NCBI RefSeq assembly: GCF_024298765.1
Contig: NZ_CP101210.1
DNA length: 64,000 bases
DNA from: Escherichia coli
GTDB lineage: Bacteria > Pseudomonadota > Gammaproteobacteria > Enterobacterales > Enterobacteriaceae
Reading direction: 5' to 3' (one strand)
In this document: positions 3,950 through 57,100 of the stretch, in pieces
Position numbering within the stretch: the stretch's first letter is position 1
Layout: every line of letters starts with the position of its first letter
Made by a program: the position numbers and the translations under genes
Notes under the pieces: generated by a model
What the model was told of the DNA's origin: nothing
The model's database searches: none
The model's input: the letters and a program-made list of their open reading frames with translations, nothing else

Positions 3950-4025
3950 TGGTGGGTCGTGCAGGATTCGAACCTGCGACCAATTGATTAAAAGTCAACT
4001 GCTCTACCAACTGAGCTAACGACCC
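3950..4025 (-). tRNA. lysQ: tRNA-Lys (UUU)
   Basis: Reverse complement gives GGGTCGTTAGCTCAGTTGGTAGAGCAGTTGACTTTTAATCAATTGGTCGCAGGTTCGAATCCTGCACGACCCACCA. Confidence 0.95.
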
Positions 4026-4058
4026 CTTGCGGGATTATGCTGCTTTAATCATTCAGGA

Positions 4059-4134
4059 TGGTGGGTCGTGCAGGATTCGAACCTGCGACCAATTGATTAA
4101 AAGTCAACTGCTCTACCAACTGAGCTAACGACCC
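4059..4134 (-). tRNA. lysZ: tRNA-Lys (UUU)
   Basis: Identical tRNA-Lys sequence, CCA encoded. Confidence 0.95.
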
Positions 4135-4182
4135 ATACGGGTGTTACCTGAAAGATTTCTACTCGGAACCAATGTTTAAAAT

Positions 4183-4258
4183 TGGTGGGTCGTGCAGGAT
4201 TCGAACCTGCGACCAATTGATTAAAAGTCAACTGCTCTACCAACTGAGCTAACGACCC
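4183..4258 (-). tRNA. lysY: tRNA-Lys (UUU)
   Basis: Identical tRNA-Lys sequence. Confidence 0.95.
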
Positions 4259-4261
4259 GAG

Positions 4262-4337
4262 TGGTGGGTGATGACGGGATCGAACCGCCGACCCCCTCCT
4301 TGTAAGGGAGGTGCTCTCCCAGCTGAGCTAATCACCC
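4262..4337 (-). tRNA. valZ: tRNA-Val (UAC)
   Basis: Reverse complement gives GGGTGATTAGCTCAGCTGGGAGAGCACCTCCCTTACAAGGAGGGGGTCGGCGGTTCGATCCCGTCATCACCCACCA. Confidence 0.95.
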
Positions 4338-4388
4338 GATACTGCGCTGGATACTACAAACTACTTCCACCGAACCCACAGTAATTAG

Positions 4389-4464
4389 TGGTGGGTCGTG
4401 CAGGATTCGAACCTGCGACCAATTGATTAAAAGTCAACTGCTCTACCAACTGAGCTAACGACCC
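4389..4464 (-). tRNA. lysW: tRNA-Lys (UUU)
   Basis: Identical tRNA-Lys sequence. Confidence 0.95.
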
Positions 4465-4466
4465 GG

Positions 4467-4542
4467 TGGTGGGTGATGACGGGATCGAACCGCCGACCCC
4501 CTCCTTGTAAGGGAGGTGCTCTCCCAGCTGAGCTAATCACCC
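4467..4542 (-). tRNA. valT: tRNA-Val (UAC)
   Basis: Identical tRNA-Val sequence. Confidence 0.95.
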
Positions 4543-4577
4543 GATACTACGCTGGATACTACAACTAACTATGTTAG

Positions 4578-4594
4578 TGGTGGGTCGTGCAGGA
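4578..4594 (-). other. 17-nt fragment identical to the 3' end of tRNA-Lys, in the lysT-valT spacer
   Basis: tggtgggtcgtgcagga matches the acceptor/T-arm end of tRNA-Lys, then diverges. Confidence 0.5.
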
Positions 4595-4677
4595 TGACTC
4601 GACTTCGTCTCGCCCTTCGGGCCGTTGCTGACGCAACGTTATCCTTCACGTTTTACTACCGCGTCCACCTTAGCGAT

Positions 4678-4753
4678 TGGTGGGTCGTGCAGGATTCGAA
4701 CCTGCGACCAATTGATTAAAAGTCAACTGCTCTACCAACTGAGCTAACGACCC
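4678..4753 (-). tRNA. lysT: tRNA-Lys (UUU), first gene of the operon
   Basis: Identical tRNA-Lys sequence. Confidence 0.95.
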
Positions 4754-5718: not shown

Positions 5719-6264
<546 letters not shown>

Positions 6265-6274
6265 TTAATTATTA

Positions 6275-7567
6275 TCACAGATACGGCGACCAGGCAGGGA
6301 ATTTGACCTGTCCATCAGTTGCCGGAAGACGCGCTTTGAAACGCCCATCTGTAGAAACCAAATTCAGCACGGATCCCATCCCCTGAGAAGAGCTGTAGAT
6401 TACCATAGTGCCGTTAGGTGCCAGACTTGGCGTTTCATCCAGGAACGTGGACGACAGAACTTGTACGCCTCCCGTTGCCAGATCTTGTTTGGCAATGTGC
6501 TGCTGCCCACCGTTGGAGCTGACCATTACCATAAATTTACCGTCGCTGCTGACATCCGCATCCTGGTTCTGCGAACCTTCCCAGGTAATACGTTGTGGCG
6601 CACCGCCGTTGATATTCACTTTATAAACCTGCGGACGACCGGCCTGGTCAGAAGTAAATGCCAGGTTCTGGCTGTCCGGGAACCAGGTCGGTTCGGTATT
6701 GTTACTGCGACCATCAGTTACCTGGCGGATCTGACCAGAAGCCAAATCCATTACGTACAGGTTCAGGCTACCGGTTTTCGACAAGGCGAATGCCAGTTTG
6801 CTGCCGTCTGGCGAGAATGCAGGTGCACCGTTGTGACGCGGGAATGAAGCCACCTGACGTACAGCGCCATTTGCCAGCGTCTGAATAACCAGCGCGGAAC
6901 GACCGCTTTCGAAGGTCACATAAGCCAGTTTAGAACCGTCTGGTGACCACGCCGGAGACATCAGCGGTTGCGGTGAACGGTGAACGACAAACTGGTTGTA
7001 ACCGTCATAGTCAGATACGCGCAGTTCATACGGGAACTGACCGCCGTTAGTCTGAACAACGTAGGCAATACGGGTACGGAACGCACCTTTAATACCGGTC
7101 AGTTTTTCAAATACTTCGTCACTGGCGGTATGACCAGCATAACGCAGCCACTGCTTGTTCACTTTGTACGAGTTCTGAGCAAGTACAGTACCCGGTGCGC
7201 CGCCAGTGTCAACAAGTTGATAAGCGACATTGTAAGAACCATCCGGATTCGGAGTGACCTGACCGACAACCACAGCGTCAATGCCCAGCGCGGACCATGC
7301 AGCTGGTTGTACTTCCTGCGCACTACCCGGCTGCTGTGGCAGACGAGCACGATCTAACGGATTAAATTTACCGCTGTTACGCAAGTCAGCAGCAACGATG
7401 CCGCCAATATCTTCAGGTGCCGCACCAGGCCCCGCCCACTGGAAAGGAACAACACCAATAGGACGACCGGAATCTACACCGCTGTCGATCACAATGCGGA
7501 CTTCAGCATGCAGAACTGATGCCCACAGTATGAGAAAACCAAATGCTACTCGTAATGCCTGCTTCAT
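6275..7567 (-). CDS. tolB: Tol-Pal system periplasmic beta-propeller protein TolB
   Basis: 430-aa ORF with signal peptide and WD40-like propeller repeats. Confidence 0.95.
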
Positions 7568-7699: not shown

Positions 7700-8989
7700 T
7701 TACGGTTTGAAGTCCAATGGCGCGTTTTTGAACACTTCATATACTGCCTGGCTTGGTGGTTTCGGGATCTTCGCAAGTTTAGCTGCTGCCAACGCAGCTT
7801 GACAAAGTGCGGGATCGCCACCTTCAGGTTTGATATCCAGTAACATACCATCGGGTGCCAGTTTTATGCGCAGCGTACAGGTTTTGCCTGCATAGGACGA
7901 TGCGTCATAGAACTTACTTTCGATAGCAGATTTAATCTGCCCGGCATAGTTATTGATATCGGCCCCTGATGCGCCATTGTTTTTAGTATTACCACTCCCG
8001 GCAGGCGAAGCATTGTTCCCTTTCGCCCCTCCCCCCGTTTTCGGTGCATTCTTACCAGAGCTTAGCTCACCGAAAATATCATCTGCCTCTGCGGCAGCTT
8101 TTGCTGCAGCGGCTTTTTCAGCTGCTGCTTTTGCCGCTGCCGCTTTTTTGTCTGCGGCGGCTTTTTCTGCCGCTGCTTTCTTATCAGCTGCTGCCTTTTC
8201 AGCAGCCGCTTTTTCTGCTGCTTTTTTGTCGGCTGCCGCTTTCTCTGCTGCCGCTTTCTTATCAGCTGCAGCCTTTTCAGCAGCCGCTTTCTTCTCAGCT
8301 TCTGCCTTGGCTTTTTCAGCAGCTTCGGTTGCCGCTTTCTTTCTTGCTTCAGCTGCAGCTGCTTCTGTCGCTTCAGCTTTCTTCTTCAGCGCCGCAGCAG
8401 CAGCCTCGGCTTTTTTCTGCGCTTCGACTGCGGCTTTGGCGGCTTCTGCTTCTGCTTTTTTCTTCGCGTCTGCCGCCGCTTTCTTCGCTGCTTCTTCCGC
8501 AGCTTTAGCATCCGCTTCGGCCTTCGCTTTAGCATCCGCTTCGGCCTTCGCTTTAGCATCTGCCGCCGCTTTCGCTGCCGCCTCTTCCGCTTGCTTCTGC
8601 TTTAACTCGGCCTGTTTTGCGGCTTCTTCAGCCTGCTTTTTCTGCTCCTGAGCCGCTAACCGCTCTTTCTCAAGTTGCTTCAGGCGTTCCTGTTCAGCCG
8701 CTTGTTTCTCACGCAGTTCTTCAGCAGCCTGCTGCTCCTTCATCTTGCGCTGCTCATCAGAACGCTTCGCGCTTGATTCCTGGCTTTGCATACGTTTGTA
8801 CTGCTCAACTACCGCACCTGAATCAACCATGACAGCGTCGATGGACGAACCACCGCCGCCTCCGGCTGAAGCTTCTATATTCTCATCGAACGAACTCCAG
8901 ATCAGCGCCGCAAATAAGATGACATGCAGCACTGCTGAAATAATTATCGCCCGCTTGAGCTTGTCGTTTTGTTCGGTTGCCTTTGACAC
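7700..8989 (-). CDS. tolA: Tol-Pal system protein TolA
   Basis: N-terminal TM anchor, long Ala/Lys/Glu-rich helical domain II, conserved C-terminal domain III; 429 aa. Confidence 0.93.
   Translation of the reverse strand: MSKATEQNDKLKRAIIISAVLHVILFAALIWSSFDENIEASAGGGGGSSIDAVMVDSGAVVEQYKRMQSQESSAKRSDEQRKMKEQQAAEELREKQAAEQERLKQLEKERLAAQEQKKQAEEAAKQAELKQKQAEEAAAKAAADAKAKAEADAKAKAEADAKAAEEAAKKAAADAKKKAEAEAAKAAVEAQKKAEAAAAALKKKAEATEAAAAEARKKAATEAAEKAKAEAEKKAAAEKAAADKKAAAEKAAADKKAAEKAAAEKAAADKKAAAEKAAADKKAAAAKAAAEKAAAAKAAAEADDIFGELSSGKNAPKTGGGAKGNNASPAGSGNTKNNGASGADINNYAGQIKSAIESKFYDASSYAGKTCTLRIKLAPDGMLLDIKPEGGDPALCQAALAAAKLAKIPKPPSQAVYEVFKNAPLDFKP
8080..8620. repeat. Imperfect tandem coding repeats in tolA domain II
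   Basis: Directly repeated units, e.g. the 24-nt unit gcatccgcttcggccttcgctttagca repeated in tandem at about 8510-8560, encoding A/K/E/D repeats. Confidence 0.8.
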
Positions 8990-9053: not shown

Positions 9054-9482
9054 TTAGATAGGCTGCGTCATTAAACCAACCGATTTCACACCCGCACTAT
9101 GTAACAAGTTCAGTGCTTTAATTATTTCATCGTAAGGCACATCTTTTGCGCCACCGATCAGAAAGACCGTTTTCGGGTTGGCCTTGAAACGGCTGGACAC
9201 TTCCGCCACCACCTGCTCTGGTGGTAAACGCTCCAGACGATCTTTCTCAACCACCACGGTGTACTGACCAATACCAGACACTTCAACAATCACTGGCGGA
9301 TTATCGTTACTGCTCACCGCCTGTGATTCAGTAGCGTCTGGCAGATCGACCTCCACGCTCTGGGTGATGATGGGCGCTGTCGCCATAAAGATCAGCAACA
9401 GCACCAGCAGTACGTCCAGCAACGGTACAATGTTGATTTCGGACTTGAGATCGCGACGACCTCGTCCACGCGCTCTGGCCAT
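9054..9482 (-). CDS. tolR: Tol-Pal system protein TolR (ExbD family)
   Basis: 142-aa ORF, single TM, ExbD/TolR fold; gene order. Confidence 0.95.
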   Translation of the reverse strand: MARARGRGRRDLKSEINIVPLLDVLLVLLLIFMATAPIITQSVEVDLPDATESQAVSSNDNPPVIVEVSGIGQYTVVVEKDRLERLPPEQVVAEVSSRFKANPKTVFLIGGAKDVPYDEIIKALNLLHSAGVKSVGLMTQPI

Positions 9483-9485: not shown

Positions 9486-10579
<1,094 letters not shown>

Positions 10580-13873: not shown

Positions 13874-14450
13874 CATGACTCCTTGCTCATCGCATGAAGA
13901 CTCCGAGAGTGAACCCCGTTAGAAAGGGTCACACGCATGCCCCAATACAAAATTATTTGCTCGCCTCTATCGTTGCCATTTCATCAAAAGAGGAAAAGAC
14001 AATGATAAAAAAGTTACAAATGTGTTAATGAATAAACCAAATTGATCCCGTAATTATATTACGCCGCAAAATCCTTACAATAAACAGGTTTTTATTGAGC
14101 AAATTTGCATTTTTCGACAGTGATCAATTTATAGCGAAATTGTCACGATCTCACCAATTTGATCTACAACAATTTATCGTGTTTTGCAGATTTTTTTCAA
14201 GAATTAAAAATTGATTTATATCAAAATCAACCATATATGTTAATTATGTGTGAATCATGAGCCACTGGTAACTTTATTGTTAATTTATTGTAACAAAATA
14301 GCACAGTAAAATTACCCACATGGAAATATATAGATAAAAAACCAGTATTTTATTTAACAGAGCCGCTTTATCGACTTTTTATAATACTAATTAGTTAGAG
14401 TAGCTACTTTATTGCCATTTTACATAACATATTTTTATCAACGTTAATTG
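13874..14450 (-). promoter_or_regulatory. cydA upstream regulatory region (complex promoter, expected FNR/ArcA/H-NS control)
   Basis: Long AT-rich non-coding leader upstream of cydA; individual sites not resolved by eye. Confidence 0.45.
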
Positions 14451-15201
14451 ATTGTTGTCTTTATGAGCAACGTACTGTAAATCCGTCACTTATTGTTTCA
14501 TTGGTAATAATCACAAGAAGAAATAGATACCTTAGGTATAGTCAGATGGAACAAGGATTTTCAAAATAAAATATATATGGTATTAATATTTCCCGATCTG
14601 TATTCAATGATTAGCTCAAAGATTGAAAATCAAGAGAAATTGTTATAGCAGTGATACGAAACAACAAAACGGAATGATTGCCAGCCGTTAGAAAACACCG
14701 GACACTCTCGTGTAAAAAGCTACCCTGTCTATGGATATAGCGATATCAACTCATCAAGCGTGGACTGAATGATATTCAGCTCCATATGGGCGGCAACCTG
14801 GAGGATAAACATGATTTCGCCGTTGGAATCAAGGTTGTTCTGCAATATCTACCAGACTGCTTCAATTTATCTGTTTTGGCAGTGCCATAATCTTAATTTA
14901 ACTATTTGAAGATGATGATATTGTAAGATGCCAGAAATTTAGTAATCTGGAGAACCATGTTTACGATCACTAAATATTAAAGTAATAGTCGATAATTCAG
15001 TAACACATCGGGTAATATAATGTATTGATACATAATCATATTAAAAATTCGTGATTAAATAACATAAGAATATGTTTTATTATCATTAAAAAACCTTCTA
15101 TTTCCATCATCCTTAAGATAATAGAACAGTGAATGATGGATAACTTCACCAGAAAAACAAGCAAGAATATAAAATTTAAAAATATGATTCCACTTTCATT
15201 G

Positions 15202-16317
15202 TTATAAAATGGCATCGTGAAGAGCGAGTTGATAATACTGCAATGCATCAGCGTCCTGTCCAGCAGTTTCATAAATTTTGGCAATGTTATAATAGGAGTT
15301 AGCGCGCATTGTCGCCGCATTTGCTCCACTGGCTAACGAGATCGCTTTACGATTTGCCCAAATTGCTTCCGCGATGTTGCCATTTTTCTGATACGCCAGC
15401 CCCAGGTTACTAAATGCCTGTCCGTAATTGCCGTCTAATTCTGTTGCCTGTTGGAAGAGTTGAATGGCTTGCTCAAGTTGACCGGTTTTATAAACAGCTT
15501 CACCTTCGCGATTATATTTTCTTGCCAGTTGAGTATCTCCACTGTTTTGCATCGCAGGTGAAGCCGGAGTTGAAGAACCCGTCGCAGGCATTATCACAGT
15601 GGCTAAATCCCTGACGCCTAATGTGGTGTCGTTAAAATTGGCGCTGGTAACAGAGTTGATATCTTCAAACTCGCCGTTTGGATTGAGTTTAAACACGGTC
15701 CAGATGTTCCCTCGTTTTCCAGCAGGGACACTATAACTACGCACCAGGGAGCTCCCTACATAAACAAACACTTTTGCCTTACTGGCAGAGAGATAATTAC
15801 TGTTGGGCAACCCTTTGTTGCTATAGTCCTGCACGGCATAGATGTAACTTTCGCCAAAATGCTTTTTGCTGATAGTGACAGTTTCTGATCCATAGCTATC
15901 CGTATCATCAACATCCAGATTAGCATCAGTCCCCTCTTTACTATCAAAATAGATATGTCCGCCAGGGAAGATCAAATGTGAATCAAGATCAAAAGGCTTT
16001 TCGCCCCAGCTCAAAACTACACGCATGCCATCCAGACTAGTCATTGCCGGACTAATCGCATAAGTCATGCCAGCACACGAACATTTGACCACCAGATTAG
16101 AATAGCCCTCTTTTTTGACGATCAATAAAGCATCTTGATCATCAGCAAATGTAGAACCCAGATTAACGCTGCCCGATGCATTTGTGGTTCCAGAAACAGA
16201 TTGTGCGCCATTGCGTTGCAGCGTCACCGATACTCCCTCAATGCGTTTATCTTTCACTGTCGCACTTAAAATATCGATATTTACATCGGCCGCATAAACG
16301 TCCGAATTTACACCCAT
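15202..16317 (-). CDS. Hypothetical protein with C-terminal TPR repeats, probably secreted; occupies the position where K-12 has mngR-mngA-mngB
   Basis: 371-aa ORF; C-terminal TPR-like helices; in-frame upstream codons encode a Sec-signal-like segment (KKKIVLPVALALMGVNSDVYA/AD) with no ATG/GTG/TTG start, so the true start is uncertain. Confidence 0.6.
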   Translation of the reverse strand: MGVNSDVYAADVNIDILSATVKDKRIEGVSVTLQRNGAQSVSGTTNASGSVNLGSTFADDQDALLIVKKEGYSNLVVKCSCAGMTYAISPAMTSLDGMRVVLSWGEKPFDLDSHLIFPGGHIYFDSKEGTDANLDVDDTDSYGSETVTISKKHFGESYIYAVQDYSNKGLPNSNYLSASKAKVFVYVGSSLVRSYSVPAGKRGNIWTVFKLNPNGEFEDINSVTSANFNDTTLGVRDLATVIMPATGSSTPASPAMQNSGDTQLARKYNREGEAVYKTGQLEQAIQLFQQATELDGNYGQAFSNLGLAYQKNGNIAEAIWANRKAISLASGANAATMRANSYYNIAKIYETAGQDADALQYYQLALHDAIL

Positions 16318-16454
16318 CAGGGCCAGAGCAACCGGCAGAACAATTTTCTTCTTGTATAAATGCTTTTACAGAACGGAGAGGGGATATTTTGCCGGGCATT
16401 ATTGCGCAGAAGATGGGAGAAAAGCAGTGGGCAAACTTTTCAGATTAGTGCCCG

Positions 16455-16481
16455 AATAAAAAAGGCCATCATAAGATGGCC
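16455..16481 (-). terminator. Rho-independent terminator downstream of sucD
   Basis: Hairpin ggccatc-ataa-gatggcc followed on the transcribed strand by a U-run. Confidence 0.6.
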
Positions 16482-42459: not shown

Positions 42460-43294
42460 CAGGGCAAGATTACGAAAGCCCGCTCCCCGTAAGGACTGAC
42501 GCCAGGTAGTTTCTGTCCATAGCTGCCCTTTCTATTCAAACGTGAAATCAATAAGTTCATCAGGGACATCACAAACAATATGAAGACGGGTTTCTTCTCT
42601 GCCGTGACTCTTTTCACTAATTGAGTAACTGTCGTGCTCTGGATTATTTAATTCTTTCAGCGGAAATTTTTCCTCAAAGGCTTTATTAAGCCGCCACCTG
42701 ATTTCCTTTTACAGCGAATAAATAATCACCTCCCTGTTTTTGTATCTTCTCTGCAATATCTTTCTGGCAACTCATCGCATCAGTTGTGATGATTTTTCCT
42801 TTAATATCCAGCATGTTAAGAAGTTCAGGGATAGCTGTAATTTCATTGGATTTCTCATCCGTCCTGATCTGTCCGATGACCAGACTGTGCATTGTTGAGA
42901 ACGCACTAATGACATGAATCGCTCCCCTGCGGCGACTCTTGTCATAAGAATGCCGGAGCGTTTTTCCATCAATTGCAATAACGTCTTTATCATCTGAAGA
43001 ATGGCAGTCACGCATCCAGTTAATAAAGCACTCGTGAAATTTTGAAGGACTGATACAGGATACAACTCTGGCGATGGTATCGTGAACAGGAATACCATTT
43101 TAAAAATCACCATATTGTTTTAAAAAATCGAGATGTGTTTCCCCAAAATCCTCTATATCTTCCCAACCATCTGCACCAGAAATAACGGCACAAATAGTCA
43201 ACAGTAGAATATCCGACAATTTATGTTCCACTTTTCCAGGATTGTCTGTAATCGGGAATAACAGAAATATGTTCCATCAATTTTTTAAGTACCA
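42460..43294 (-). pseudogene. H-repeat (ISAs1-family) transposase pseudogene, copy 1: internal deletion plus nonsense/frameshift
   Basis: Aligns to the intact copy at 45108-46244 but lacks about 330 bp near the 3' end, has the 1-bp insertion shared with copy 3, and a stop (ttttaaaa in place of ttttcaaa) near 43100. Confidence 0.85.
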
Positions 43295-43424
43295 TTTTGT
43301 TCTCCTTAATTATGTAAGGAGTATTTGATCATGTATAAGCAATAAAAAACAGCTTTAGGTAATGAGGAATATCTCAATTTTTAAACATAAAATGCGAATT
43401 GTCTAGTACAAAAAAGCAGCGTTA

Positions 43425-43531
43425 CGTGATCTTTCCCTGAGAGGTACAGGAACTGCGGGAGGAACTTTATCAGGTTAAACAGGGGTTAAGGGGATGCGGA
43501 ACGGGATGTTTAGTGTGCTGAACGAAAGCTA
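43425..43531 (+). pseudogene. SymE-like toxin gene remnant (internal deletion)
   Basis: Retains the leader and GTG start context and the 3' end of the intact copy at 46375-46725; central part deleted, early stop. Confidence 0.7.
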
Positions 43532-43587
43532 AATAATAAAAAAGCCGGGAAGATCTTATCTTTCCCGGCCATCTTGCCATACATTAA

Positions 43588-44022
43588 TTATTTATGAATA
43601 TAATATAACTGAACATCATATTCATTATCACTTAAAACTATTAGTCGATCGGGAAATGTAAATGCTAATGAAAGATCATATGTTTCATTTATCGAAAACA
43701 AACTCAATATGAAATTTGAAAAATTTTCGACATGAAGAGATATGCAAACATCTCCATTATAGAATATATTGCAAAGAATATCTTTTTTCACATTCAGTGT
43801 ACTTTCAACATCTCTCGCTAGATCATTAATATTTAAAGGTAAATTGAAAACTCTCCTTTCAATAATATTATCGGTTTTATTTATTGCCATTAGCATTTCT
43901 CGATGCCACATGAAGTCATTCTTACGTAAGAATGATACATCAAAGGAAGTGACACCATTTAATTTAGAAGCATAATCTTTTGCTCTAATTAAATTTAATT
44001 TATCTTCAAGGCTAATTTTCAT
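43588..44022 (-). CDS. Putative Rhs-toxin immunity protein (orphan cassette 1)
   Basis: 144-aa low-GC ORF starting 4 nt before the stop of the orphan toxin reading frame; typical rhs-CT/rhsI arrangement. Confidence 0.6.
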   Translation of the reverse strand: MKISLEDKLNLIRAKDYASKLNGVTSFDVSFLRKNDFMWHREMLMAINKTDNIIERRVFNLPLNINDLARDVESTLNVKKDILCNIFYNGDVCISLHVENFSNFILSLFSINETYDLSLAFTFPDRLIVLSDNEYDVQLYYIHK

Positions 44023-44470
44023 AATATATATGATGATCCTTAGTTACAGGGTCATTGATCTTCTGATATCTATCACTTTTGAAATCGTATGTTCTAGGAT
44101 CAGCGCCCGGTTTAGGTTGTCCTGCATGTGCGTGAGGGCCAGGTGCCCTAGGATCTGCCGTGTGCTCGACTACAACTTTCTTACGTCCGTAGGCATCTGT
44201 ATATTCATAATATCGCCCATGAGACCCTAAATCTTCCGAATATTTATAATTTGTTTGTCCCCTTCTTCTAGGATCATTTCCAACGGTCCATTGCCTATTA
44301 GGTTGCTGTGAACGAGGTATGCCCGCAAGATCTTTTGCTTTATTTAGTGCCTGACGACGGTTTCTTAATTCACCACATTTAAGACCAAGCGGATCTATCC
44401 AGCTTACTGGATTAGGCGCGTAAGCATATAAGTTTAGCCCCCCCGCCAGCCCTATCGGGTCGGGTTACGT
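44011..44470 (-). pseudogene. Orphan rhs C-terminal toxin remnant (no start codon; in-frame stop before the DPxGL motif)
   Basis: Reverse-strand frame reads ...[46 protein letters not shown] followed by a 125-aa unique domain ending at the immunity gene; not in the ORF track because it lacks a start. Confidence 0.7.
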
Positions 44471-44634
44471 AAATGTTCCACAGTCCGAGTCGTAGTACCT
44501 CAGAAGGTTGCAGTGCAATCCCGCCTTGCGACATCAAGGCATAGTTTCAGAAAAAGTAAGGAGCAATCACCATACCCCAATTCACTGGGTGCTAAATAAT
44601 ATCTGGTAACATCCCTTACTTCAATTCTATTTCA

Positions 44635-45030
44635 TTACAACTTCTTTACTTTCCATATTCTTTGCGCAGCTAAAAAAGATACTCCTTTGAACCAAGACGC
44701 ACATTCAATAACTTGTTCCCATGAATATATTTTATGTGAGCTAAATTTTATCGATTCATCTTGGTTCATTATCTCAATAAAATAATATCCTTTATTATAA
44801 TCTCTTTTTTCTATTCTATCTTCAGCTCTTGCCGAACGTATAGAAATAACACAATCATCTAATAAACAAAATCTTTTCTTTATAATCGCATCATCTTGGT
44901 TCCATGGATTTGTACTTGCCATTTGTTCTGATTGTTTCAGCTCATTCACTACTGTATACCAAATAGCTTCGGTATCACTTGCCTTTGCATTCTCTCTATC
45001 AGACTCGGATCTAAATATAATTTTGTCCAT
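44635..45030 (-). CDS. Hypothetical protein, possibly an orphan immunity gene
   Basis: 131-aa low-GC ORF between H-repeat copy 2 and the orphan toxin remnant; no recognisable motif. Confidence 0.4.
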   Translation of the reverse strand: MDKIIFRSESDRENAKASDTEAIWYTVVNELKQSEQMASTNPWNQDDAIIKKRFCLLDDCVISIRSARAEDRIEKRDYNKGYYFIEIMNQDESIKFSSHKIYSWEQVIECASWFKGVSFLAAQRIWKVKKL

Positions 45031-45107
45031 TTTAATAATCCAAATGTAAATTACTTAAAATACCCTCTGCCTCATTCCAGGCATTGACATGGGAACCCAG
45101 GGAAAGA

Positions 45108-46244
45108 TTACGAAAGCCCGCTCCCAGCAAGGACTGACGCCAGATAGTTTCTGTCCATGGCTGCTTTTCGCATCTTACGTCTTAACCCTGCCTTGAATAC
45201 CTTATCATTCGTCAAAATATTAATAGCGATGTGCCGTATCCCTGAAAATAATTCTGCTGCATTTCCTCTTCTTATTTTGCAGTCGTCTTCATTCATTACC
45301 ACGTCCAGACGCCAGTGCAGCTTATTCTCCACGTGCCAGTGGTTTCGGATTGCTGTGGCGAACTTCTCTGCGGTTAAATCAGCAGAACTGATATAATATC
45401 TGACCGTCATTTCTGGCTCTTTCTTTTGTTCTGCTATTATTGACCGAAAGGAGACTGCCACGCATAATTTCTTCAGACCTTTCCATTCAAACGTGAAATC
45501 AATAAGTTCATCAGGGACATCGCAAACAATATGAAGACGGATTTCTTCTCTGCCGTGACTTTTTTCACTAATTGCGTAACTGTCATGCTCTGGATTATTT
45601 AATTCTTTCAGTGGGAATTTTTCCTCAAAGGCTTTATTAAGCCGCCCCTGATTTCCTTTTACAGCGAATAAATAATCACCGCCCTGTTTTTGTATCTTCT
45701 CTGCGATATCTTTCTGGCACCCCATCGCATCAGTTGTGATAATTTTTCCTTTAATATCCAACATGTTAAGAAGTTCAGGGATAGCTGTGATCTCATTGGA
45801 TTTCTCATCCGTCCTGATCTGTCCGATGACCAGACTGTGCATTGTTGAGAACGCACTAATGACATGAATCGCTCCCCTGCGGCGACTCTTGTCATAAGAA
45901 TGCCGGAGCGTTTTTCCATCAATTGCAATAACGTCTTTATCATCTGAAGAATGGCAGTCACGCATCCAGTTAATAAAGCACTCGTGAAATTTTGCAGGAC
46001 TGATACAGGATACAACTCTGGCAATGGTATCGTGAACAGGAATACCATTTTCAAAATCACCATATTGCTTCAAAAAATCGAGATGTGTTTCCCCAAAATC
46101 CTCTATATCTTCCCAGCCTTCTGCACAAGAAATAACGGCACAAATAGTCAACAGTAGAATATCCGACAATTTATGTTCCACTTTCCAGGCTTGTCTGTAA
46201 TCGGGGATAATAGAAATATGTTCCATCAATTTTTTAAGTTCCAT
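45108..46244 (-). CDS. H-repeat-associated protein (ISAs1-family transposase), intact copy 2
   Basis: 378-aa ORF of the YhhI/YdcC/YbfD H-rpt type; element left end about 45094 (aagattacgaaagcccgc). Confidence 0.9.
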
Positions 46245-46374
46245 TTTGTTCTCCTTAATTATGTAAGGAGTATTTGACCATGTATACGCAATAAAAAACA
46301 GCTTCAGGTAATGAGGAATATCTCAATTTTTAAACATAAAATGCGAATTATTTAGTACAAAAAAGCAGCGTTAC

Positions 46375-46725: not shown

Positions 46726-46734
46726 ATAATAAAA

Positions 46735-46776: not shown

Positions 46777-47172
46777 TTATTCAGGAAATTTTCTATTTTT
46801 ATATGATGACCATAAGTGAGTGATCGACCAAGAGTTTTCCTTTCCGAGTACAAAACTTTTGGAGATTATCTCAATATCATCAGATATACGCGAAGATATT
46901 TCAGAATTATTAATCACCCTGAATGAGTATTTAAATGCCTTTTCTCGCAAGGAATCAATAAACTCAATATCATCATCCTGAAAACTTTCCTTATCTAATG
47001 AATTAAACTCACTCATCCAGCAATCATCAAACTCCGGTTCATCTCTTGAGTCTAATGCACTATCAACATTTAATGATTTAAGAAAATCAAAAAATGACGG
47101 GGTGGATAAACAGTTATCAATTTCAATTAGCTTATTATTAATCATCACATTAACCCTTGTCCTTTGAGCCAA
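46777..47172 (-). CDS. Putative Rhs-toxin immunity protein (orphan cassette 2)
   Basis: 131-aa acidic low-GC ORF immediately 3' of and overlapping the GHH-type orphan toxin. Confidence 0.6.
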   Translation of the reverse strand: MAQRTRVNVMINNKLIEIDNCLSTPSFFDFLKSLNVDSALDSRDEPEFDDCWMSEFNSLDKESFQDDDIEFIDSLREKAFKYSFRVINNSEISSRISDDIEIISKSFVLGKENSWSITHLWSSYKNRKFPE

Positions 47173-47790
47173 ACCTCTATTAAATCAACAGCCTTGGATG
47201 GTGTCACATTAGTACCTAGCGTATAAGTTCCATTTGGAGATTTAACATCAACTCTGATGTCATCTAATTTTGAATACGCTTTTCTGTAAGCATCAAATAA
47301 CTCTTTATCCGAACCAAGGAAATCACCTTGTCTTGGACCTATCACATCTCGTTCCGCATGATGTAAACGCCAGTGATTATGTTCTGGATTTTCTCCTCTA
47401 GGGAATAATGTTGGGCGAGTTTTATCAGATCGGGAAACTTCAAACGGACGTCCTTTAGATTTACGAACCGCAGGAACATGATGTCCAGATTCACTCACGC
47501 CCATACACTTCTTCGTTAATCCAAGGGGATCGATCCAGCTTAACGGATTCGGTGCATAAGCATACAGGTTTAACCCGCCTCTTAGCCCTATCGGGTCCGT
47601 TACCATGAACCGCCCGACATCCGGATCATAGTACCTGTGCAGATTGTAATGCAGCCCCGTTTCCCTGTCGAGGTACTGTCCCTGGTAGCGCAGGTTCTGC
47701 TCCACCCCGCCGTGGTCCTTCTCCTGTATCGTGTTACCCCAGACCTGATACCCCGTCTCCCACACGATTTTCCCGTCACTGTCCGTCATC
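47145..47790 (-). CDS. Orphan rhs C-terminal fragment with GHH-signature HNH/EndoVII-like nuclease toxin domain
   Basis: Core end ([38 protein letters not shown]) followed by a unique domain containing SGHHVPAV and EHNHWRLHH; 5' end truncated by the H-repeat copy 3 insertion; the track Met is fortuitous. Confidence 0.65.
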
Positions 47791-47802
47791 TCCAGGGCAA
47801 GA

Positions 47803-48940
47803 TTACGAAAGCCCGCACCCCGCAAGGACTGACGCCAGATAGTTTCTGTCCATGGCTGCTTTTCGCATCTTACGTCTTAACCCTGCCTTGAATACCTTAT
47901 CATTCGTCAAAATATTAATAGCGATGTGCCGTATCCCTGAAAATAATTCTGCTGCATTTCCTCTTCTTATTTTGCAGTCGTCTTCATTCATTACCACGTC
48001 CAGACGCCAGTGCAGCTTATTCTCCACGTGCCAGTGATTTCGGATCGCTGTGGCGAACTTTTCTGCGGTTAAATCAGCAGAACTGATATAATATCTGACC
48101 GTCATTTCTGGCTCTTTCTTTTGTTCTGCTATTATGGACCGAAAGGAGACTGCCACGCATAATTTCTTCAGTCCTTTCCATTCAAACGTGAAATCAATAA
48201 GTTCATCAGGGACATCACAAACAATATGAAGACGGGTTTCTTCTCTGCCGTGACTCTTTTCACTAATTGAGTAACTGTCGTGCTCTGGATTATTTAATTC
48301 TTTCAGCGGAAATTTTTCCTCAAAGGCTTTATTAAGCCGCCACCTGATTTCCTTTTACAGCGAATAAATAATCACCTCCCTGTTTTTGTATCTTCTCTGC
48401 AATATCTTTCTGGCAACTCATCGCATCAGTTGTGATGATTTTTCCTTTAATATCCAGCATGTTAAGAAGTTCAGGGATAGCTGTAATTTCATTGGATTTC
48501 TCATCCGTCCTGATCTGTCCGATGACCAGACTGTGCATTGTTGAGAACGCACTAATGACATGAATCGCTCCCCTGCGGCGACTCTTGTCATAAGAATGCC
48601 GGAGCGTTTTTCCATCAATTGCAATAACGTCTTTATCATCTGAAGAATGGCAGTCACGCATCCAGTTAATAAAGCACTCGTGAAATTTTGCAGGACTGAT
48701 ACAGGATACAACTCTGGCAATGGTATCGTGAACAGGAATACCATTTTCAAAATCACCATATTGCTTCAAAAAATCGAGATGTGTTTCCCCAAAATCCTCT
48801 ATATCTTCCCAGCCTTCTGCACCAGAAATAACGGCACAAATAGTCAACAGTAGAATATCCGACAATTTATGTTCCACTTTCCAGGCTTGTCTGTAATCGG
48901 GGACAATAGAAATATGTTCCATCAATTTTTTAAGTTCCAT
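47803..48940 (-). pseudogene. H-repeat (ISAs1-family) transposase pseudogene, copy 3 (frameshifted)
   Basis: Split into two ORFs (47803-48156 and 48332-48940) by a 1-bp insertion (aagccgccacctg versus aagccgcccctg in the intact copy). Confidence 0.85.
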
Positions 48941-49947: not shown

Positions 49948-51753
49948 TTATTTACGCCGAGTTATTTTTGCATTATCAGAAAGAACAATATCACCTTTCA
50001 CAGTCAATTCATCTATATGGTATCGAGGGTTTGTTACCCACTCTAATTGCTCGTTAGGTACATCTGTTTCCACATAATCTCTACCTTTCCCACGACCTAT
50101 TTGATATTTCGCCTCTATGTCTACTTGACTGAGTGGTTTTTTATTCGCAGGTTCCAAATATACACGACCGTTATCATGCGCCTTAATTATCCCACTTTCA
50201 GCAATCGCATTTGAACCTTTACGATTAGTATAATGCCGCACACGAGTAGTTCCATTACAGAGCTCTTTTTTTAATCCGAGTGGATCAATATATTTCAGCG
50301 GATTAGGCGCATAAGCATATAAGTTCAACCCACCCGCCAGCCCTATCGGATCCGTTACAATGAACCGCCCGACATCCGGATCATAGTACCTGTGCAGATT
50401 GTAATGCAGCCCTGTTTCCCTGTCGAGGTACTGTCCCTGGTAGCGCAGGTTCTGCTCCACCCTGCCGTGGTCCTTCTCCTGTATCGTGTTACCCCAGACC
50501 TGATACCCCGTCTCCCACACGATTTTCCCGTCACTGTCCGTCATCTCTTCCGGCGCGCCGTTCACATCCGTGTGAAAATACAGTATCCGGTTCGGGCCCT
50601 CTTTGCCCGCCTTATCCACCCGCGCCAGCGGTTCATAACTCCCCGGGTCCCTGTAGATGTACAGGCTGTCTGTTCCCTCCGGCCTGCTCTCCTGCGCCAG
50701 CCGCATTCCGTCCCATAAAAATGCCGTCCGGTTGTACGGTTTACCGTCAGGGCTGATGTGCTGTTTTTCCGTCCGCCTCCCCAGCGCATCGTACACATAC
50801 CGGTACGTTCCCCGCGCTGTCGTCACTTCCACCATCCGGTGTTCCGCATCATAACGGTAACTCTGCGTGCCGCTCCGCCCCTCCTTTTCCACCGCACGGC
50901 CAAATTCGTCGTAACGGTAGTGCACACCACGGTAAGACATCAGCCGGTTGAACGGCACCACGCTGTTTTCTGCCGTGGCCCTTTCCCCCGCGCGCCGCCC
51001 CAGCAGGTTTCCCGCCGCGTCGTACTGCCAGCTCGCCAGATACCCCTCATCCTCCGAGCGGCACGCCGTGATGCGCCCCGTGGGGTCGTAGAAGTAATCC
51101 GTTTCCCCCCGCCGGCTGTGCCGCGTCTTCAGCAGTTCATCCTCGCCACTGTAGCTGTACTGCCGGTCCGTGAACGTCTCCGGTACCACCCCGCGCATCC
51201 CGCTGTATGTCTCCCTGCGCTTCAGCCGCCCGGCGGGGTCGTAAAGCTGCCGCGTGCTCAGTCGCCCCTGACTTCTGAGCACTTCACGGTGCAGGGCGTC
51301 ACGAGTGAACTCGCTGATGACCTCCCGGTCCAGATTTATCTGCTGGAGATGGCCGCTGCCGTAGTACAGATGACGCTGCGTTCTGCCGTCCGGAAAGGTG
51401 GTGGCTGTCCGGTTGCTGAGTTCATCGTACTGATGGGTCAGGACGCCCTGCGCCGTCTCCTCAGTCAGCATCCGCCCCAGTCTGTCGTAACTGAAACGGA
51501 TAATCTCCGGTGCGTCTGTTTCCCCGGCATCCGACCGTCGGCGGCGGATTTCCAGTAACTGGTCTGCCGCATCATGGACGTATTCCGTACGGCTATCGGC
51601 TGTCTCCTTTGCCGTGAGCCGGCCCGCCGCATCACGTGCCAGCCGGTGGCGGATTTCACCGCCCCGGTCCCCGGTGAACACCACTTCCGTGACCGCGTTC
51701 AGCGCGTTGTAGCGGTACGTCTGGCGGCAGCCGTCGTGCTGCCAGCGCAGCAT
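49948..51753 (-). CDS. Orphan rhs fragment: about 480 aa of Rhs core plus a distinct C-terminal toxin domain
   Basis: YD-repeat core near-identical to the main rhs, then DPIGLAGG...DPLGL and a unique roughly 108-aa tail (KKELCNGTTRVRHYTNRKGSNAIAESGII...); rhs homology starts at DGCRQTYRY, so the track Met is fortuitous. Confidence 0.8.
   Translation of the reverse strand: MLRWQHDGCRQTYRYNALNAVTEVVFTGDRGGEIRHRLARDAAGRLTAKETADSRTEYVHDAADQLLEIRRRRSDAGETDAPEIIRFSYDRLGRMLTEETAQGVLTHQYDELSNRTATTFPDGRTQRHLYYGSGHLQQINLDREVISEFTRDALHREVLRSQGRLSTRQLYDPAGRLKRRETYSGMRGVVPETFTDRQYSYSGEDELLKTRHSRRGETDYFYDPTGRITACRSEDEGYLASWQYDAAGNLLGRRAGERATAENSVVPFNRLMSYRGVHYRYDEFGRAVEKEGRSGTQSYRYDAEHRMVEVTTARGTYRYVYDALGRRTEKQHISPDGKPYNRTAFLWDGMRLAQESRPEGTDSLYIYRDPGSYEPLARVDKAGKEGPNRILYFHTDVNGAPEEMTDSDGKIVWETGYQVWGNTIQEKDHGRVEQNLRYQGQYLDRETGLHYNLHRYYDPDVGRFIVTDPIGLAGGLNLYAYAPNPLKYIDPLGLKKELCNGTTRVRHYTNRKGSNAIAESGIIKAHDNGRVYLEPANKKPLSQVDIEAKYQIGRGKGRDYVETDVPNEQLEWVTNPRYHIDELTVKGDIVLSDNAKITRRK
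50362..51735. repeat. 1.37-kb direct repeat, copy A (orphan rhs core)
   Basis: Essentially identical to 52880-54253 (offset 2518 bp); the antisense track ORFs 50392-50718 and 50758-51558 recur identically at 52910-53236 and 53276-54076. Confidence 0.9.
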
Positions 51754-52441: not shown

Positions 52442-55400
52442 TTAGTTGTCGTGTGATGAATTGAATGGGAACGATGTACGTACAGAACCGTCGGGTTTTA
52501 CAACAACCCTTGCCATATCTGGAACTACCTCTGTCCCATCAGGTAAATAACCTCGACTTTTTATATTTGTAGGCAATGGCACATCATGCACACCTGGTCC
52601 TTTTTTGGCAACAGAAGCAATAAAATCAGCAGCAGAATTATCATCGAGATATTGTCCAACTTGATGACCTTTATTTCTGGCACGATCAATTAACTGATTT
52701 GGTTTCATTTTCTGTCCGTGTTCAGAAAAGGTGTGACCGTATGTAGGCTTACTTTTTGGATTTCCCCATTTGAAGTCAGATTTAGGACACAATCCAAGTG
52801 GGTCGATCCATGACAGTGGATTAGGTGCATACTGATATAAGTTTAACCCGCCTCTCAGCCCTATCGGGTCCGTTACCATGAACCGCCCGACATCCGGATC
52901 ATAGTACCTGTGCAGATTGTAATGCAGTCCCGTTTCCCTGTCGAGGTACTGTCCCTGGTAGCGCAGGTTCTGCGCCACCCCGCCGTGGTCCTTCTCCTGT
53001 ATCGTGTTACCCCAGACCTGATACCCCGTCTCCCACACGATTTTCCCGTCACTGTCCGTCATCTCTTCCGGCGCGCCGTTCACATCCGTGTGAAAATACA
53101 GTATCCGGTTCGGGCCCTCTTTGCCCGCCTTATCCACCCGCGCCAGCGGTTCATAACTCCCCGGGTCCCTGTAGATGTACAGGCTGTCTGTTCCCTCCGG
53201 CCTGCTCTCCTGCGCCAGCCGCATTCCGTCCCATAAAAATGCCGTCCGGTTGTACGGTTTACCGTCAGGGCTGATGTGCTGTTTTTCCGTCCGCCTCCCC
53301 AGCGCATCGTACACATACCGGTACGTTCCCCGCGCTGTCGTCACTTCCACCATCCGGTGTTCCGCATCATAACGGTAACTCTGCGTGCCGCTCCGCCCCT
53401 CCTTTTCCACCGCACGGCCAAATTCGTCGTAACGGTAGTGCACACCACGGTAAGACATCAGCCGGTTGAACGGCACCACGCTGTTTTCTGCCGTGGCCCT
53501 TTCCCCCGCGCGCCGCCCCAGCAGGTTTCCCGCCGCGTCGTACTGCCAGCTCGCCAGATACCCCTCATCCTCCGAGCGGCACGCCGTGATGCGCCCCGTG
53601 GGGTCGTAGAAGTAATCCGTTTCCCCCCGCCGGCTGTGCCGCGTCTTCAGCAGTTCATCCTCGCCACTGTAGCTGTACTGCCGGTCCGTGAACGTCTCCG
53701 GTACCACCCCGCGCATCCCGCTGTATGTCTCCCTGCGCTTCAGCCGCCCGGCGGGGTCGTAAAGCTGCCGCGTGCTCAGTCGCCCCTGACTTCTGAGCAC
53801 TTCACGGTGCAGGGCGTCACGAGTGAACTCGCTGATGACCTCCCGGTCCAGATTTATCTGCTGGAGATGGCCGCTGCCGTAGTACAGATGACGCTGCGTT
53901 CTGCCGTCCGGAAAGGTGGTGGCTGTCCGGTTGCTGAGTTCATCGTACTGATGGGTCAGGACGCCCTGCGCCGTCTCCTCAGTCAGCATCCGCCCCAGTC
54001 TGTCGTAACTGAAACGGATAATCTCCGGTGCGTCTGTTTCCCCGGCATCCGACCGTCGGCGGCGGATTTCCAGTAACTGGTCTGCCGCATCATGGACGTA
54101 TTCCGTACGGCTATCGGCTGTCTCCTTTGCCGTGAGCCGGCCCGCCGCATCACGTGCCAGCCGGTGGCGGATTTCACCGCCCCGGTCCCCGGTGAACACC
54201 ACTTCCGTGACCGCGTTCAGCGCGTTGTAGCGGTACGTCTGGCGGCAGCCGTCCGGATTTATCTGCTCCGCCAGACGGTCCAGCACGTCATGGCGGAACC
54301 GGTAGCTTTCTCCGTTCTCGTTTGTCAGCGTGACCAGACGCCCGTAAGCATCGTACCCGAACGCCGTCCTGCGCCCCGTCGCGTCTGTCCGGCTGCGCAC
54401 CCGGCCCTGCCCGTCCCGCTGCCAGCGCGTTATCCTCCCCATCGGGCTGGTGTACTTCACCAGCCTGCCCGCCGCGTCCGACTGGTAATTCACCGTGCGG
54501 CCGTCCGCCAGTATCACCTCCGTCAGGTGGCCGCTGTCGTCATACCCGTAGCGCGTGCTGTGGCTCTGCGCGTCTGTCATCCGTATCAGCCGCGTGCGTT
54601 CGTCGTAGAACCAGGCCGTCTGCGAGCCGGAACAGTCCGTGTGCCGCATGAGCTGCCCGTCTTCGTTCCACTGAAGGTATTTATTCCCCCCGCGCGCATC
54701 GGTTATCTGCACCACCTGGCCGTGGCGGTCATACTGATACCGGGTGTTCTGCTGCAGCGGGTCGGTCACCGCAAGAAGATTGCCGCGTTCATCGTACTCA
54801 CAGCACCAGCTGTTCCCCGCCGCGTCCACCTCCGTTTCCGGCTGGTGCCACACCGGGTGCCACTGTGTCTGTGCCACCCGCCCCAGCGGGTCGTGCGTCT
54901 CCGTGATATGCCCCTGCCGGTCATACACATAGCGCCATTTGCCGCCCTGCGCATCGGTCATTCCCAGTAACAGCCGTTCTTCGTCGCTCCAGCGGAACGT
55001 CGTCACCTGCCCGGCTTCGTCCTGGTACGCCGTCACCTGATTCTGCGCGTCCCACTGATGATAACGCGTGCGCCCCAGCCCGTCCGTCACGCACAGCCTG
55101 CGTGACGCCAGGCTCCACGCCAGCCGGTACTGTTCACCGCTGTCCGTGTGGTGCCCCGTCACCCGCCACGCTGCGTCATCCGGGCCTTCATACCAGCTCC
55201 ACTGGTAATAATACCCTTCGCCGCCCGGCTGGCGGTGCAGGGTCATGCAGTGGTTTTCGTCGTAAGCAAACTCGCGCAGCAGGTGTCCCGTGCTGTCGTA
55301 CACGCCGTTCAGGTCGCCGGCCTCGTCATAGCGGTAACGACGCAGCAGTAAAGGAGCCGTCTCAGGGAAATGCTGATAAATCTGTGTCACCCGCCGGGGA

Positions 55401-57100
55401 TGCGCCGCCAGTTCATAATGCAGACGGATGCACGGACGCTGCTGTTCACCGCTGATTTGCGTGATGCGCCCCAGCTCGTCGTAGTACAGATTCAGACAGT
55501 TGCTGTTGCGGTCGCCCAGCATTTTCAGCCGCTGGCGCTGCGGGTGATGCGGGTCGGCTTCAAACAGAAAAAACTGCCCGTCATCGCTGCTGATAAGCCA
55601 GTGCCCCTGCTCACCCCGCCTTACCGCCAGTCCTTCGCCGGGGCTGTAAAACCCGCTCCCCGGCAGCACGGCCTCCATATCCAGGCGTCGCCCCATGCCC
55701 GACACAAAGGTCATGCAGTTTTCGTCAGCAGTACCCGGCGTGCGCCCGAGGCTGACTTCATACATCACGCTCCAGCCCTGCCCGAACATCCCTTCCGTGC
55801 GGTCGTCACGACTGCTGTACACGCGCTGCCAGTCCAGCGGAAAGTGGCCCGGCAGACTGAAATCGAAGTCATCGTCATCGGCCAGATATTTGGCTCCGGT
55901 GGCGGCATTGACCGGATGCGGAAGGGCACTGATGGCCTTCTGCGTCATCACCCCCATCCCGACACTGGCAGCAAAACAGGCGATTTTAGAAAGCATTTTG
56001 CCCGGGCGAAGAAACATCAGCGCCACGGTTGCCACCAGGGTTATCTGCGACCTGCCGCTTCTGATATCCCTGACCACCAGTAACGGACCGCCAATGCGGA
56101 CATCCGGTGACACAAACGCCCCGTTCCCCGGCTCATTCACCACCCTGGCCTCGCAGGTGCAGCGTGCCCCGCTGCGTGCCGCCGGCTGGCTGTTGATACG
56201 CACATCCCGCGCGCCTTCCGCGATATATTCCGCTGCGGGCGGTTCATCATCGCCTTTGAACAGATTACTGATGCTGCCAATAACCGCATTCACTCCCTGA
56301 AAGGCGGTTTCCAGCATACCGTCCGGACTCAGCAGGTTAAGGGCCGTTCCCAGGGGGTCATCCAGAAAGGCGGCTTTTTTTTGTGCGAGAAACTGCGTCA
56401 GTGAGGAGGGATGTTTATGGCAGTCGATTTTATCGTCAGGGGTCGGGGTGGAGCCCGGGGCCGCACTGGCCACGGTGGGCTGCCATAGTTCCGACACAAA
56501 ATGTGTCACGCCATCCACCATTTCAGAACGCCCTTCTTCCGTACTGAGCTGGTCGTGCAGCGCCCGGGACATCAGCACAGGCCCTGTCACCGGGTTAACC
56601 GCCAGGGCTATGGCCCCCGCCATTTCCAGATATTCCCCGGCCACATCCAGGAACGTTCTGGCATCCTCCTGACGCTGCGCTTCTTCCTGTTCCGCCTTCG
56701 CCTGCGCCTCCTGCGCCTCAATGTCCTGCCGCGATGCCGCAGTCGCCGCGGCCCGCGCGGCAGGTTTGCTGTTGATCCATGTGTCGCCAGAGCCGGTGAG
56801 GATGTAACCTTCAATCTGAGGCGGGAAAAGCATATTTGCGAGGTCTGAACAGACTTCGCTGACCGTGTCTGTCACGCCGGTGTACACCATCGCCACACCC
56901 GCCACAAAACCGGTCAGCACGACGGCCGTGCACCCCATCGTGATCCCCACTGACGCCGCCAGTAACGAGGTTGTGCCGACAATGAGGGCATCAATAACGA
57001 CATTTGCGGCCACCTCCAGCACCGCCCCCAGCACATCTGCCATAAACGACGTATGCAGCAGGGCATCACCCTGCCTTGCCGCCCAGAATGCCTCTTCCAT
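52442..57100 (-). CDS. Full-length Rhs polymorphic toxin with N-terminal prePAAR-like motif and hydrophobic segment (T6SS effector-like), YD-repeat shell and variable C-terminal toxin domain
   Basis: 1552-aa ORF; N-terminus MEEAFWAARQGDALLH fits AARxxDxxxH, followed by about 55 hydrophobic residues and PAAR-containing segments; YD repeats; core ends PxxxxDPxGL (WIDPLGL) about 115 aa before the stop. Confidence 0.85.
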   Translation of the reverse strand: MEEAFWAARQGDALLHTSFMADVLGAVLEVAANVVIDALIVGTTSLLAASVGITMGCTAVVLTGFVAGVAMVYTGVTDTVSEVCSDLANMLFPPQIEGYILTGSGDTWINSKPAARAAATAASRQDIEAQEAQAKAEQEEAQRQEDARTFLDVAGEYLEMAGAIALAVNPVTGPVLMSRALHDQLSTEEGRSEMVDGVTHFVSELWQPTVASAAPGSTPTPDDKIDCHKHPSSLTQFLAQKKAAFLDDPLGTALNLLSPDGMLETAFQGVNAVIGSISNLFKGDDEPPAAEYIAEGARDVRINSQPAARSGARCTCEARVVNEPGNGAFVSPDVRIGGPLLVVRDIRSGRSQITLVATVALMFLRPGKMLSKIACFAASVGMGVMTQKAISALPHPVNAATGAKYLADDDDFDFSLPGHFPLDWQRVYSSRDDRTEGMFGQGWSVMYEVSLGRTPGTADENCMTFVSGMGRRLDMEAVLPGSGFYSPGEGLAVRRGEQGHWLISSDDGQFFLFEADPHHPQRQRLKMLGDRNSNCLNLYYDELGRITQISGEQQRPCIRLHYELAAHPRRVTQIYQHFPETAPLLLRRYRYDEAGDLNGVYDSTGHLLREFAYDENHCMTLHRQPGGEGYYYQWSWYEGPDDAAWRVTGHHTDSGEQYRLAWSLASRRLCVTDGLGRTRYHQWDAQNQVTAYQDEAGQVTTFRWSDEERLLLGMTDAQGGKWRYVYDRQGHITETHDPLGRVAQTQWHPVWHQPETEVDAAGNSWCCEYDERGNLLAVTDPLQQNTRYQYDRHGQVVQITDARGGNKYLQWNEDGQLMRHTDCSGSQTAWFYDERTRLIRMTDAQSHSTRYGYDDSGHLTEVILADGRTVNYQSDAAGRLVKYTSPMGRITRWQRDGQGRVRSRTDATGRRTAFGYDAYGRLVTLTNENGESYRFRHDVLDRLAEQINPDGCRQTYRYNALNAVTEVVFTGDRGGEIRHRLARDAAGRLTAKETADSRTEYVHDAADQLLEIRRRRSDAGETDAPEIIRFSYDRLGRMLTEETAQGVLTHQYDELSNRTATTFPDGRTQRHLYYGSGHLQQINLDREVISEFTRDALHREVLRSQGRLSTRQLYDPAGRLKRRETYSGMRGVVPETFTDRQYSYSGEDELLKTRHSRRGETDYFYDPTGRITACRSEDEGYLASWQYDAAGNLLGRRAGERATAENSVVPFNRLMSYRGVHYRYDEFGRAVEKEGRSGTQSYRYDAEHRMVEVTTARGTYRYVYDALGRRTEKQHISPDGKPYNRTAFLWDGMRLAQESRPEGTDSLYIYRDPGSYEPLARVDKAGKEGPNRILYFHTDVNGAPEEMTDSDGKIVWETGYQVWGNTIQEKDHGGVAQNLRYQGQYLDRETGLHYNLHRYYDPDVGRFMVTDPIGLRGGLNLYQYAPNPLSWIDPLGLCPKSDFKWGNPKSKPTYGHTFSEHGQKMKPNQLIDRARNKGHQVGQYLDDNSAADFIASVAKKGPGVHDVPLPTNIKSRGYLPDGTEVVPDMARVVVKPDGSVRTSFPFNSSHDN
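52880..54253. repeat. 1.37-kb direct repeat, copy B (main rhs core)
   Basis: Essentially identical to 50362-51735. Confidence 0.9.

Follow-up and report, generated by a model that had tools for sequence, protein, structure and literature searches.

The tol-pal locus and the tolA gene of the window

The window, a stretch of 64,000 nucleotides from Escherichia coli (RefSeq assembly GCF_024298765.1, contig NZ_CP101210.1), carries tolA within the gene order ybgC-tolQ-tolR-tolA-tolB-pal-cpoB, which is collinear with K-12 and represents the usual context of the gene (Table 1). RefSeq places tolA at the same coordinates in near-identical genomes, and the locus whose RefSeq annotation was used for tolB and pal shows 3 differences from the window in 25 kb.

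Domain II of TolA is the stalk that joins the inner-membrane TolQR motor to domain III, and domain III engages TolB-Pal, group A colicins and g3p of filamentous phages. All three domains are readily recognised in the encoded protein. Its N-terminus reads MSKATEQNDKLKR, and residues 1-142 match K-12 TolA exactly, S18 and H22 included, i.e. the anchor that interacts with the motor is present in its K-12 form; AlphaFold2 predicts a domain I helix at residues 4-34. The motor-interaction role of the domain I motif, including His22, has been described (PMC10666116). Domain II is composed of Lys1-2-Ala3-4-Glu/Asp repeats and forms long helices in the predicted structure (residues 57-181 and 194-305), in keeping with an Ala/Lys/Glu-rich helical stalk. 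The C-terminus is the TolA C-terminal domain, which Pfam PF06519 matches with E=2e-38 at profile positions 1-96 of 96. A 429-aa TolA is also deposited in RefSeq (WP_000030668.1); it lacks the substitution A208T that is private to the window.

Table 1. Features of the tolA locus (positions counted from the first nucleotide of the window).
Feature	Position	Strand	Remarks
tolA coding sequence	7700..8989	minus	429 aa + stop, GTG start; from the ORF list
TolA domain I (N-terminal membrane anchor, Gly-rich linker)	8849..8989	minus	about aa 1-47; same as K-12
Perfect 24-nt tandem repeat, 2.5 copies	8502..8560	minus	unit GATGCTAAAGCGAAGGCCGAAGCG; gene positions 430-488, aa 144-163
One full 24-nt unit taken as extra relative to K-12	8513..8536	minus	placement arbitrary; 8537-8560 equivalent
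Private nonsynonymous SNP A208T in tolA	8368	minus	absent from 14EC020, EC31 and GPEC1035
Classical tolA repeat tract, degenerate 15/18-bp units K(1-2)A(3-4)E/D	8087..8293	minus	aa 233-301
TolA domain III (C-terminal globular)	7709..7993	minus	aa 333-427; Pfam PF06519
tolR	9054-9482	minus	motor gene upstream of tolA, same operon; ORF, collinear with K-12/RefSeq
tolQ	9486-10178	minus	motor gene upstream of tolA, same operon; ORF, collinear with K-12/RefSeq
tolB	6275-7567	minus	downstream partner; longest ORF, from an upstream ATG, extends to 7570
pal	5719-6240	minus	downstream partner; ORFs and RefSeq annotation of an almost identical locus

Several features outside the tol-pal region are also worth recording. 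Between sucD/sdhX and cydA, where K-12 has mngR-mngA-mngB (about 5.9 kb), the window lacks these three genes and has about 2.2 kb instead (14255-16458). This replacement encodes a 371-aa tetratricopeptide-repeat protein (15202..16317, minus strand) that carries the same RefSeq annotation in sister genomes. The seven-tRNA cluster at 3950-4753 (Lys-Val-Lys-Val-Lys-Lys-Lys) has the K-12 order, and three of its inter-tRNA spacers are about 100 nt shorter (51, 48 and 33 nt vs 149, 146 and 132 nt in K-12). An Rhs locus extends from about 43000 to 57100. A PAAR-DUF6531-RHS protein is encoded there at full length (1552 aa; 52442..57100, minus strand). It is accompanied by an orphan Rhs C-terminus of 601 aa (49948..51753, minus strand), which bears a Tox-ART-HYD1 ADP-ribosyltransferase tip, and by an additional 226-aa tip fragment (47145..47825, minus strand). 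Interspersed among them are ISAs1/H-repeat DDE transposases, one intact (45108..46244) and one truncated (48332..48940).

A single 24-nt unit accounts for the length difference from K-12

The tolA gene of K-12 MG1655 (NC_000913.3, 776342-777607) comprises 1266 nt and encodes 421 aa. Its pairwise alignment with the window gene gave a DNA identity of 98% and one 24-nt indel. The sole length difference is thus one extra in-frame unit of 24 nt, which encodes DAKAKAEA and alters the protein at residues 143-150. The initial annotation had given TolA 429 aa here vs 421 aa in K-12, and the alignment to MG1655 bears this out. In the protein and DNA alignments the 8-aa gap in K-12 reads ADAKAKAE, DAKAKAEA or AKAKAEAD depending on the phase, so that the extra AKAKAEAD noted at first is indeed present and is the DAKAKAEA unit in another phase, of tandem 24-nt origin. 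Apart from the extra unit, the two proteins differ by the substitutions A188V and A208T, and the genes by 20 bases in total, 18 of them beyond those two.

Tandem Repeats Finder (TRF) reports a repeat with a period of 24, 2.5 copies, 100% matches and a score of 118 at 8502-8560. Such perfect head-to-tail repeats with a unit length divisible by 3 have the make-up of an intragenic VNTR. K-12 has 1.5 copies of the unit, with one mismatch. When 24 nt are removed from the window after position 8501, the sequence equals that of strain GPEC1035 except for 3 SNPs.

A 24-nt array had been proposed for the whole span 8080-8620. According to TRF, this holds for the 59 nt from 8502 to 8560 and fails for the remaining span. 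A single 24-nt array of 540 nt was rejected, since the other repeats have different periods. At 8088-8300, these are 15, 30, 33, 45 and 78 nt with 64-88% identity, and the region corresponds to the classical repeat tract of tolA, which consists of 13 imperfect repeats in MG1655 (PMC3477136). Window residues 233-301 match the K-12 protein without an indel. The copy number of the tract is therefore the same as in K-12, and the window gene is not a tract variant in the published sense, i.e. one with a copy number other than the 13 of MG1655.

Length variation of tolA in E. coli

A gene megablast detected tolA in 5,425 of 5,426 complete E. coli genomes. The remaining genome was without any tolA match, and two tolA matches were located on plasmids. 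Length frequencies were derived from two samples of 40 and 60 rows, taken at even intervals along the ranking, and were complemented by targeted fetches. Samples and fetches together yielded 17 tolA lengths from 1185 to 1338 nt, every one a multiple of 3, which correspond to proteins of 394-445 aa. In the evenly spaced sample, 41 of 59 full-length rows (69%) had 1266 nt, or 421 aa. A protein alignment of 13 alleles located every indel in domain II, at no fewer than six separate sites and mostly in the C-terminal tract, while domains I and III were free of indels and varied by a single substitution, S413N in domain III. These 17 in-frame classes, with indels confined to domain II, substantiate the earlier suggestion that the length of this domain is strain-variable. 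Most of the natural length variation falls in the classical tract, away from the 24-nt site. The TolA of strain CE-O153H30, for example, also has 429 aa, but attains this length via a loss of 2 aa and a gain of 10 aa elsewhere, and its 24-nt unit is present in 1.5 copies.

In the clinical isolate NIPH17_0036 (NZ_AP024561.1), RefSeq lists tolA as a pseudogene with a frameshift and an internal stop, which could mean that TolA has truly been lost or that the repeat tract was wrongly assembled.

Two other indels are found no more than 100 nt from the 24-nt array. In EC23-1020, the 15 nt of GCGGCAGCGAAAGCG are duplicated, which adds 5 aa (426 aa), and LR-50 has lost 24 nt between direct repeats of GAAGCAG (413 aa). 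Both bear the same direct-repeat signature as the 24-nt duplication. Their location at gene positions of about 405-480 suggests that the upstream part of domain II is itself a minor indel-prone zone.

Distribution and recurrence of the duplication

The copy state of the 24-nt repeat was scored with probes. With an 83-nt probe that spans the array, the default E-value is unsuitable, because K-12-like genomes match it as two joined pieces with 100% coverage. We therefore tightened the E-value cut-offs for the copy-state probes to 1e-24 and 1e-36; at E<=1e-24 the 83-nt probe excludes 1.5-copy genomes. Thereby, at least 2.5 copies were detected in 61 of the 5,426 genomes (1.1%), 55 of which match the probe at 100%. 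Many of the 2.5-copy carriers stem from chickens, turkeys or APEC collections. A synthetic 3.5-copy probe identified one genome only, SCU-171, which encodes a TolA of 437 aa. The tolA of this genome corresponds to the window allele with one further unit, from which it deviates at a single base, the private SNP of the window.

The duplication occurs on three tolA backgrounds, each with its own unit sequence. The K-12-type unit ends in A and the window-type unit in G, and this lineage SNP is present in both copies. In strains 13E0767, OkiPb01716 and MB50, tolA shows 0 differences from a synthetic sequence composed of K-12 tolA and a duplicated K-12 unit. FDAARGOS_943 represents the third background, with 11 differences from this K-12-plus-duplication sequence and 19 from the window. 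The duplication has thus arisen independently at least three times.

Over its first 25 kb, the window is almost perfectly matched by one clonal group. Among the best 60 matches to this segment, about 45 cover the full span and 11 are exactly 24 nt shorter. Strains 14EC020 (429 aa) and GPEC1035 (421 aa) have the same three SNPs relative to the window over 25 kb, and hence the 24-nt unit is the sole difference between the two. Accordingly, 1.5 and 2.5 copies coexist on an otherwise identical 25-kb haplotype, and 3.5 copies are found on the same tolA haplotype, as in a VNTR. Since these 25-kb twins differ only by the unit, the copy number appears to shift faster than point mutations build up.

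The best full-length match to the window tolA has 99.9% identity. Relative to 14EC020, EC31 and GPEC1035, the window has private SNPs at 7654 (tolA-tolB spacer), 8368 (A208T) and 13751 (cydA), which could be strain-specific mutations or sequencing errors. We also considered ST117, which was suspected from strain names, as the carrier lineage. This assignment was dropped, as the window is without an MLST locus and O78:H4 genomes occur with and without the window-type allele.

Predicted effect on the TolA stalk

In AlphaFold2 models of the 429- and the 421-aa protein, the insertion site is located inside a long predicted helix (pLDDT about 87-91), and the extra residues are helical. The stalk helix should thus be 8 residues longer in these models, i.e. 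about 12 A at 1.5 A per residue. As a point of reference, a published AlphaFold model has a helical hairpin of 220 A vs a periplasm of 250-300 A (PMC8928145). As the insertion leaves domains I and III and the reading frame intact, TolA is expected to function. The position of the helix break is inconsistent between the two models (182-193 vs 212-229), with pLDDT <55 at the break and pTM of 0.26-0.27, so that the models are informative on the helical state of the insertion site and not on the hairpin register.

The initial suggestion that stalk length may affect colicin and phage import is plausible in kind, and published experiments give an indication of how the stalk length may matter. Isogenic strains in which 2, 6, 8, 26 or 39 units replace the 13 of the neighbouring tract become more tolerant to deoxycholate with increasing copy number, plating of phage fd is down to 28-43% at every non-wild-type tract length, and tolerance to high salt and low pH is best at 6-13 units (PMC3477136). 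In that account, phenotypes are altered only by large copy-number changes. Domain II chimeras of varied length and composition remain sensitive to colicins and differ in outer-membrane stabilisation (PMC10666116). By analogy, we would expect the effect of 8 additional residues to be small or negligible. As 421 aa is the length in about 69% of the genes sampled and every departure of the tract from wild type lowers fd plating, it is also conceivable that TolA length is under stabilising selection, and the additional 8 aa may not be fully neutral.

Origin and significance of the extra unit

Taken together, these data make it very probable that the extra unit is an in-frame short-tandem-repeat copy-number polymorphism in tolA, generated by slippage or unequal recombination and expected to be nearly neutral. 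The longest direct repeat with in-frame spacing in the ancestral zone is the 11-nt sequence GATGCTAAAGC, which occurs twice, 24 nt apart. In the allele regarded as ancestral (K-12 and about 99% of E. coli), these two copies would make up 1.5 units. Misalignment of GATGCTAAAGC in the course of replication (slipped-strand mispairing), or alternatively unequal recombination, could then duplicate the unit to give 2.5 copies, which would add DAKAKAEA to the Ala/Lys/Glu-rich alpha-helix of domain II. After the duplication, adjacent copies share 35 nt of perfect homology, which should make additional gains or losses of units more likely, and SCU-171 with its 3.5 copies exemplifies such a gain. We infer slippage or recombination as the mechanism by analogy with the neighbouring tract. 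There, contractions occur at a frequency of 6.9e-5, drop to 15% of this value in a recA mutant, rise 3.3-fold in uvrD and are unchanged by mutS (PMC3477136).

Among the alternatives, the one that fares best is an adaptive contingency locus, in which a longer stalk would tune bile-salt tolerance or lower the susceptibility to TolA-dependent colicins and filamentous phages. Such a role would explain why the duplication recurs and why it is so frequent in one avian-associated lineage: the unit has at least three independent origins, has expanded further to 3.5 copies and is carried by 55 genomes of one clonal group, and in the synthetic variants of the neighbouring tract deoxycholate tolerance rises with copy number and fd plating falls off the wild-type length (PMC3477136). 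However, recurrence is predicted by a mutational hot spot alone, carriers remain a small minority in a population dominated by 421 aa, sister genomes on the same 25-kb haplotype lack the unit, and 11 of the 60 best 25-kb matches are exactly 24 nt shorter. Moreover, the effects described in PMC3477136 took changes of at least 5 units (at least 25 aa) in another part of the stalk, and domain II chimeras of varied length kept their colicin sensitivity (PMC10666116). We therefore regard an adaptive role as unlikely. A more specific version appears still more doubtful, namely that residues 143-163 constitute a second, undescribed hypervariable site of TolA whose expansions (429 and 437 aa) are favoured in the avian-associated group via effects on bile or detergents, colicins or phages. 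The frequent occurrence of the 2.5-copy allele in this successful and largely avian-associated group could be due to hitch-hiking or to selection.

It is highly improbable that the longer allele was imported from another lineage by homologous recombination and not generated in place. Core genes of E. coli do recombine, and the tolA alleles fall into distinct SNP haplotypes. Nevertheless, both copies of the unit bear the SNP of their own lineage (G in the window group, A in that of the K-12 type), and the 25-kb flank is of identical sequence whether or not the unit is carried. Short tandem repeats are open to mis-assembly, yet an artefact of sequencing or assembly deserves practically no credence, as the array of 59 nt is below any read length and the same 83-nt stretch is shared, at 100% identity, by 55 independent complete genomes that stem from different laboratories.

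Comparison with known systems

A length polymorphism that arises in place within tolA, as favoured here, has a close precedent. Zhou, Michiels and Aertsen (PLoS One 2012; PMC3477136) interpreted the classical tract as a hypermutable contingency locus and found copy numbers of 8-16 in a survey of 234 isolates, 66% of which had the K-12 state. This proportion is close to the 69% at 421 aa in our sample. The likeness extends to the same gene, the same domain II helix and in-frame repeats that code for Ala, Lys and Glu and vary between strains. The extra unit of the window is thus a real and ordinary instance of the tolA length polymorphism published in 2012. Intragenic repeats in tolA were reportedly also the subject of another paper by Zhou, Vanoirbeek, Aertsen and Michiels (Res Microbiol 2012).

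The two repeats differ in position and regularity. The published tract occupies the C-terminal portion of domain II with 13 imperfect units, whereas the extra 8 aa lie about 80 residues upstream and derive from a perfect unit. The accessible text of PMC3477136 does not mention the 24-nt site, although it states that deletions can involve upstream repeats of lower conservation. The minor novelty is that this separate unit upstream of the published tract likewise behaves like a mini-VNTR, which occurs in 1.5, 2.5 or 3.5 copies, has at least three independent origins and is polymorphic within a 25-kb haplotype.

Stalk length bears on force transfer across the periplasm and on the entry of colicins and phages. 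From a practical perspective, tolA is a poor choice for allele-based typing, and a length unlike that of K-12 is nothing unusual.

Like other bacterial intragenic VNTRs, which arise through slipped-strand mispairing or unequal recombination, the site has head-to-tail units divisible by 3, several copy states on one haplotype and recurrent changes. Unlike typical VNTRs, its copies are very few (1.5-3.5), and the frame is always kept, so that there is no on/off switching. Domain II of TonB and other stalks offer a further parallel, as their low-complexity spacers vary between taxa and their ends are conserved (PMC12204202; PMC10666116). The TonB stalk, however, is a proline-rich PPII helix, whereas domain II of TolA is an Ala-rich alpha-helix, and the stalk variation described in these studies is found between species, whereas that of tolA described here occurs within one clonal group.
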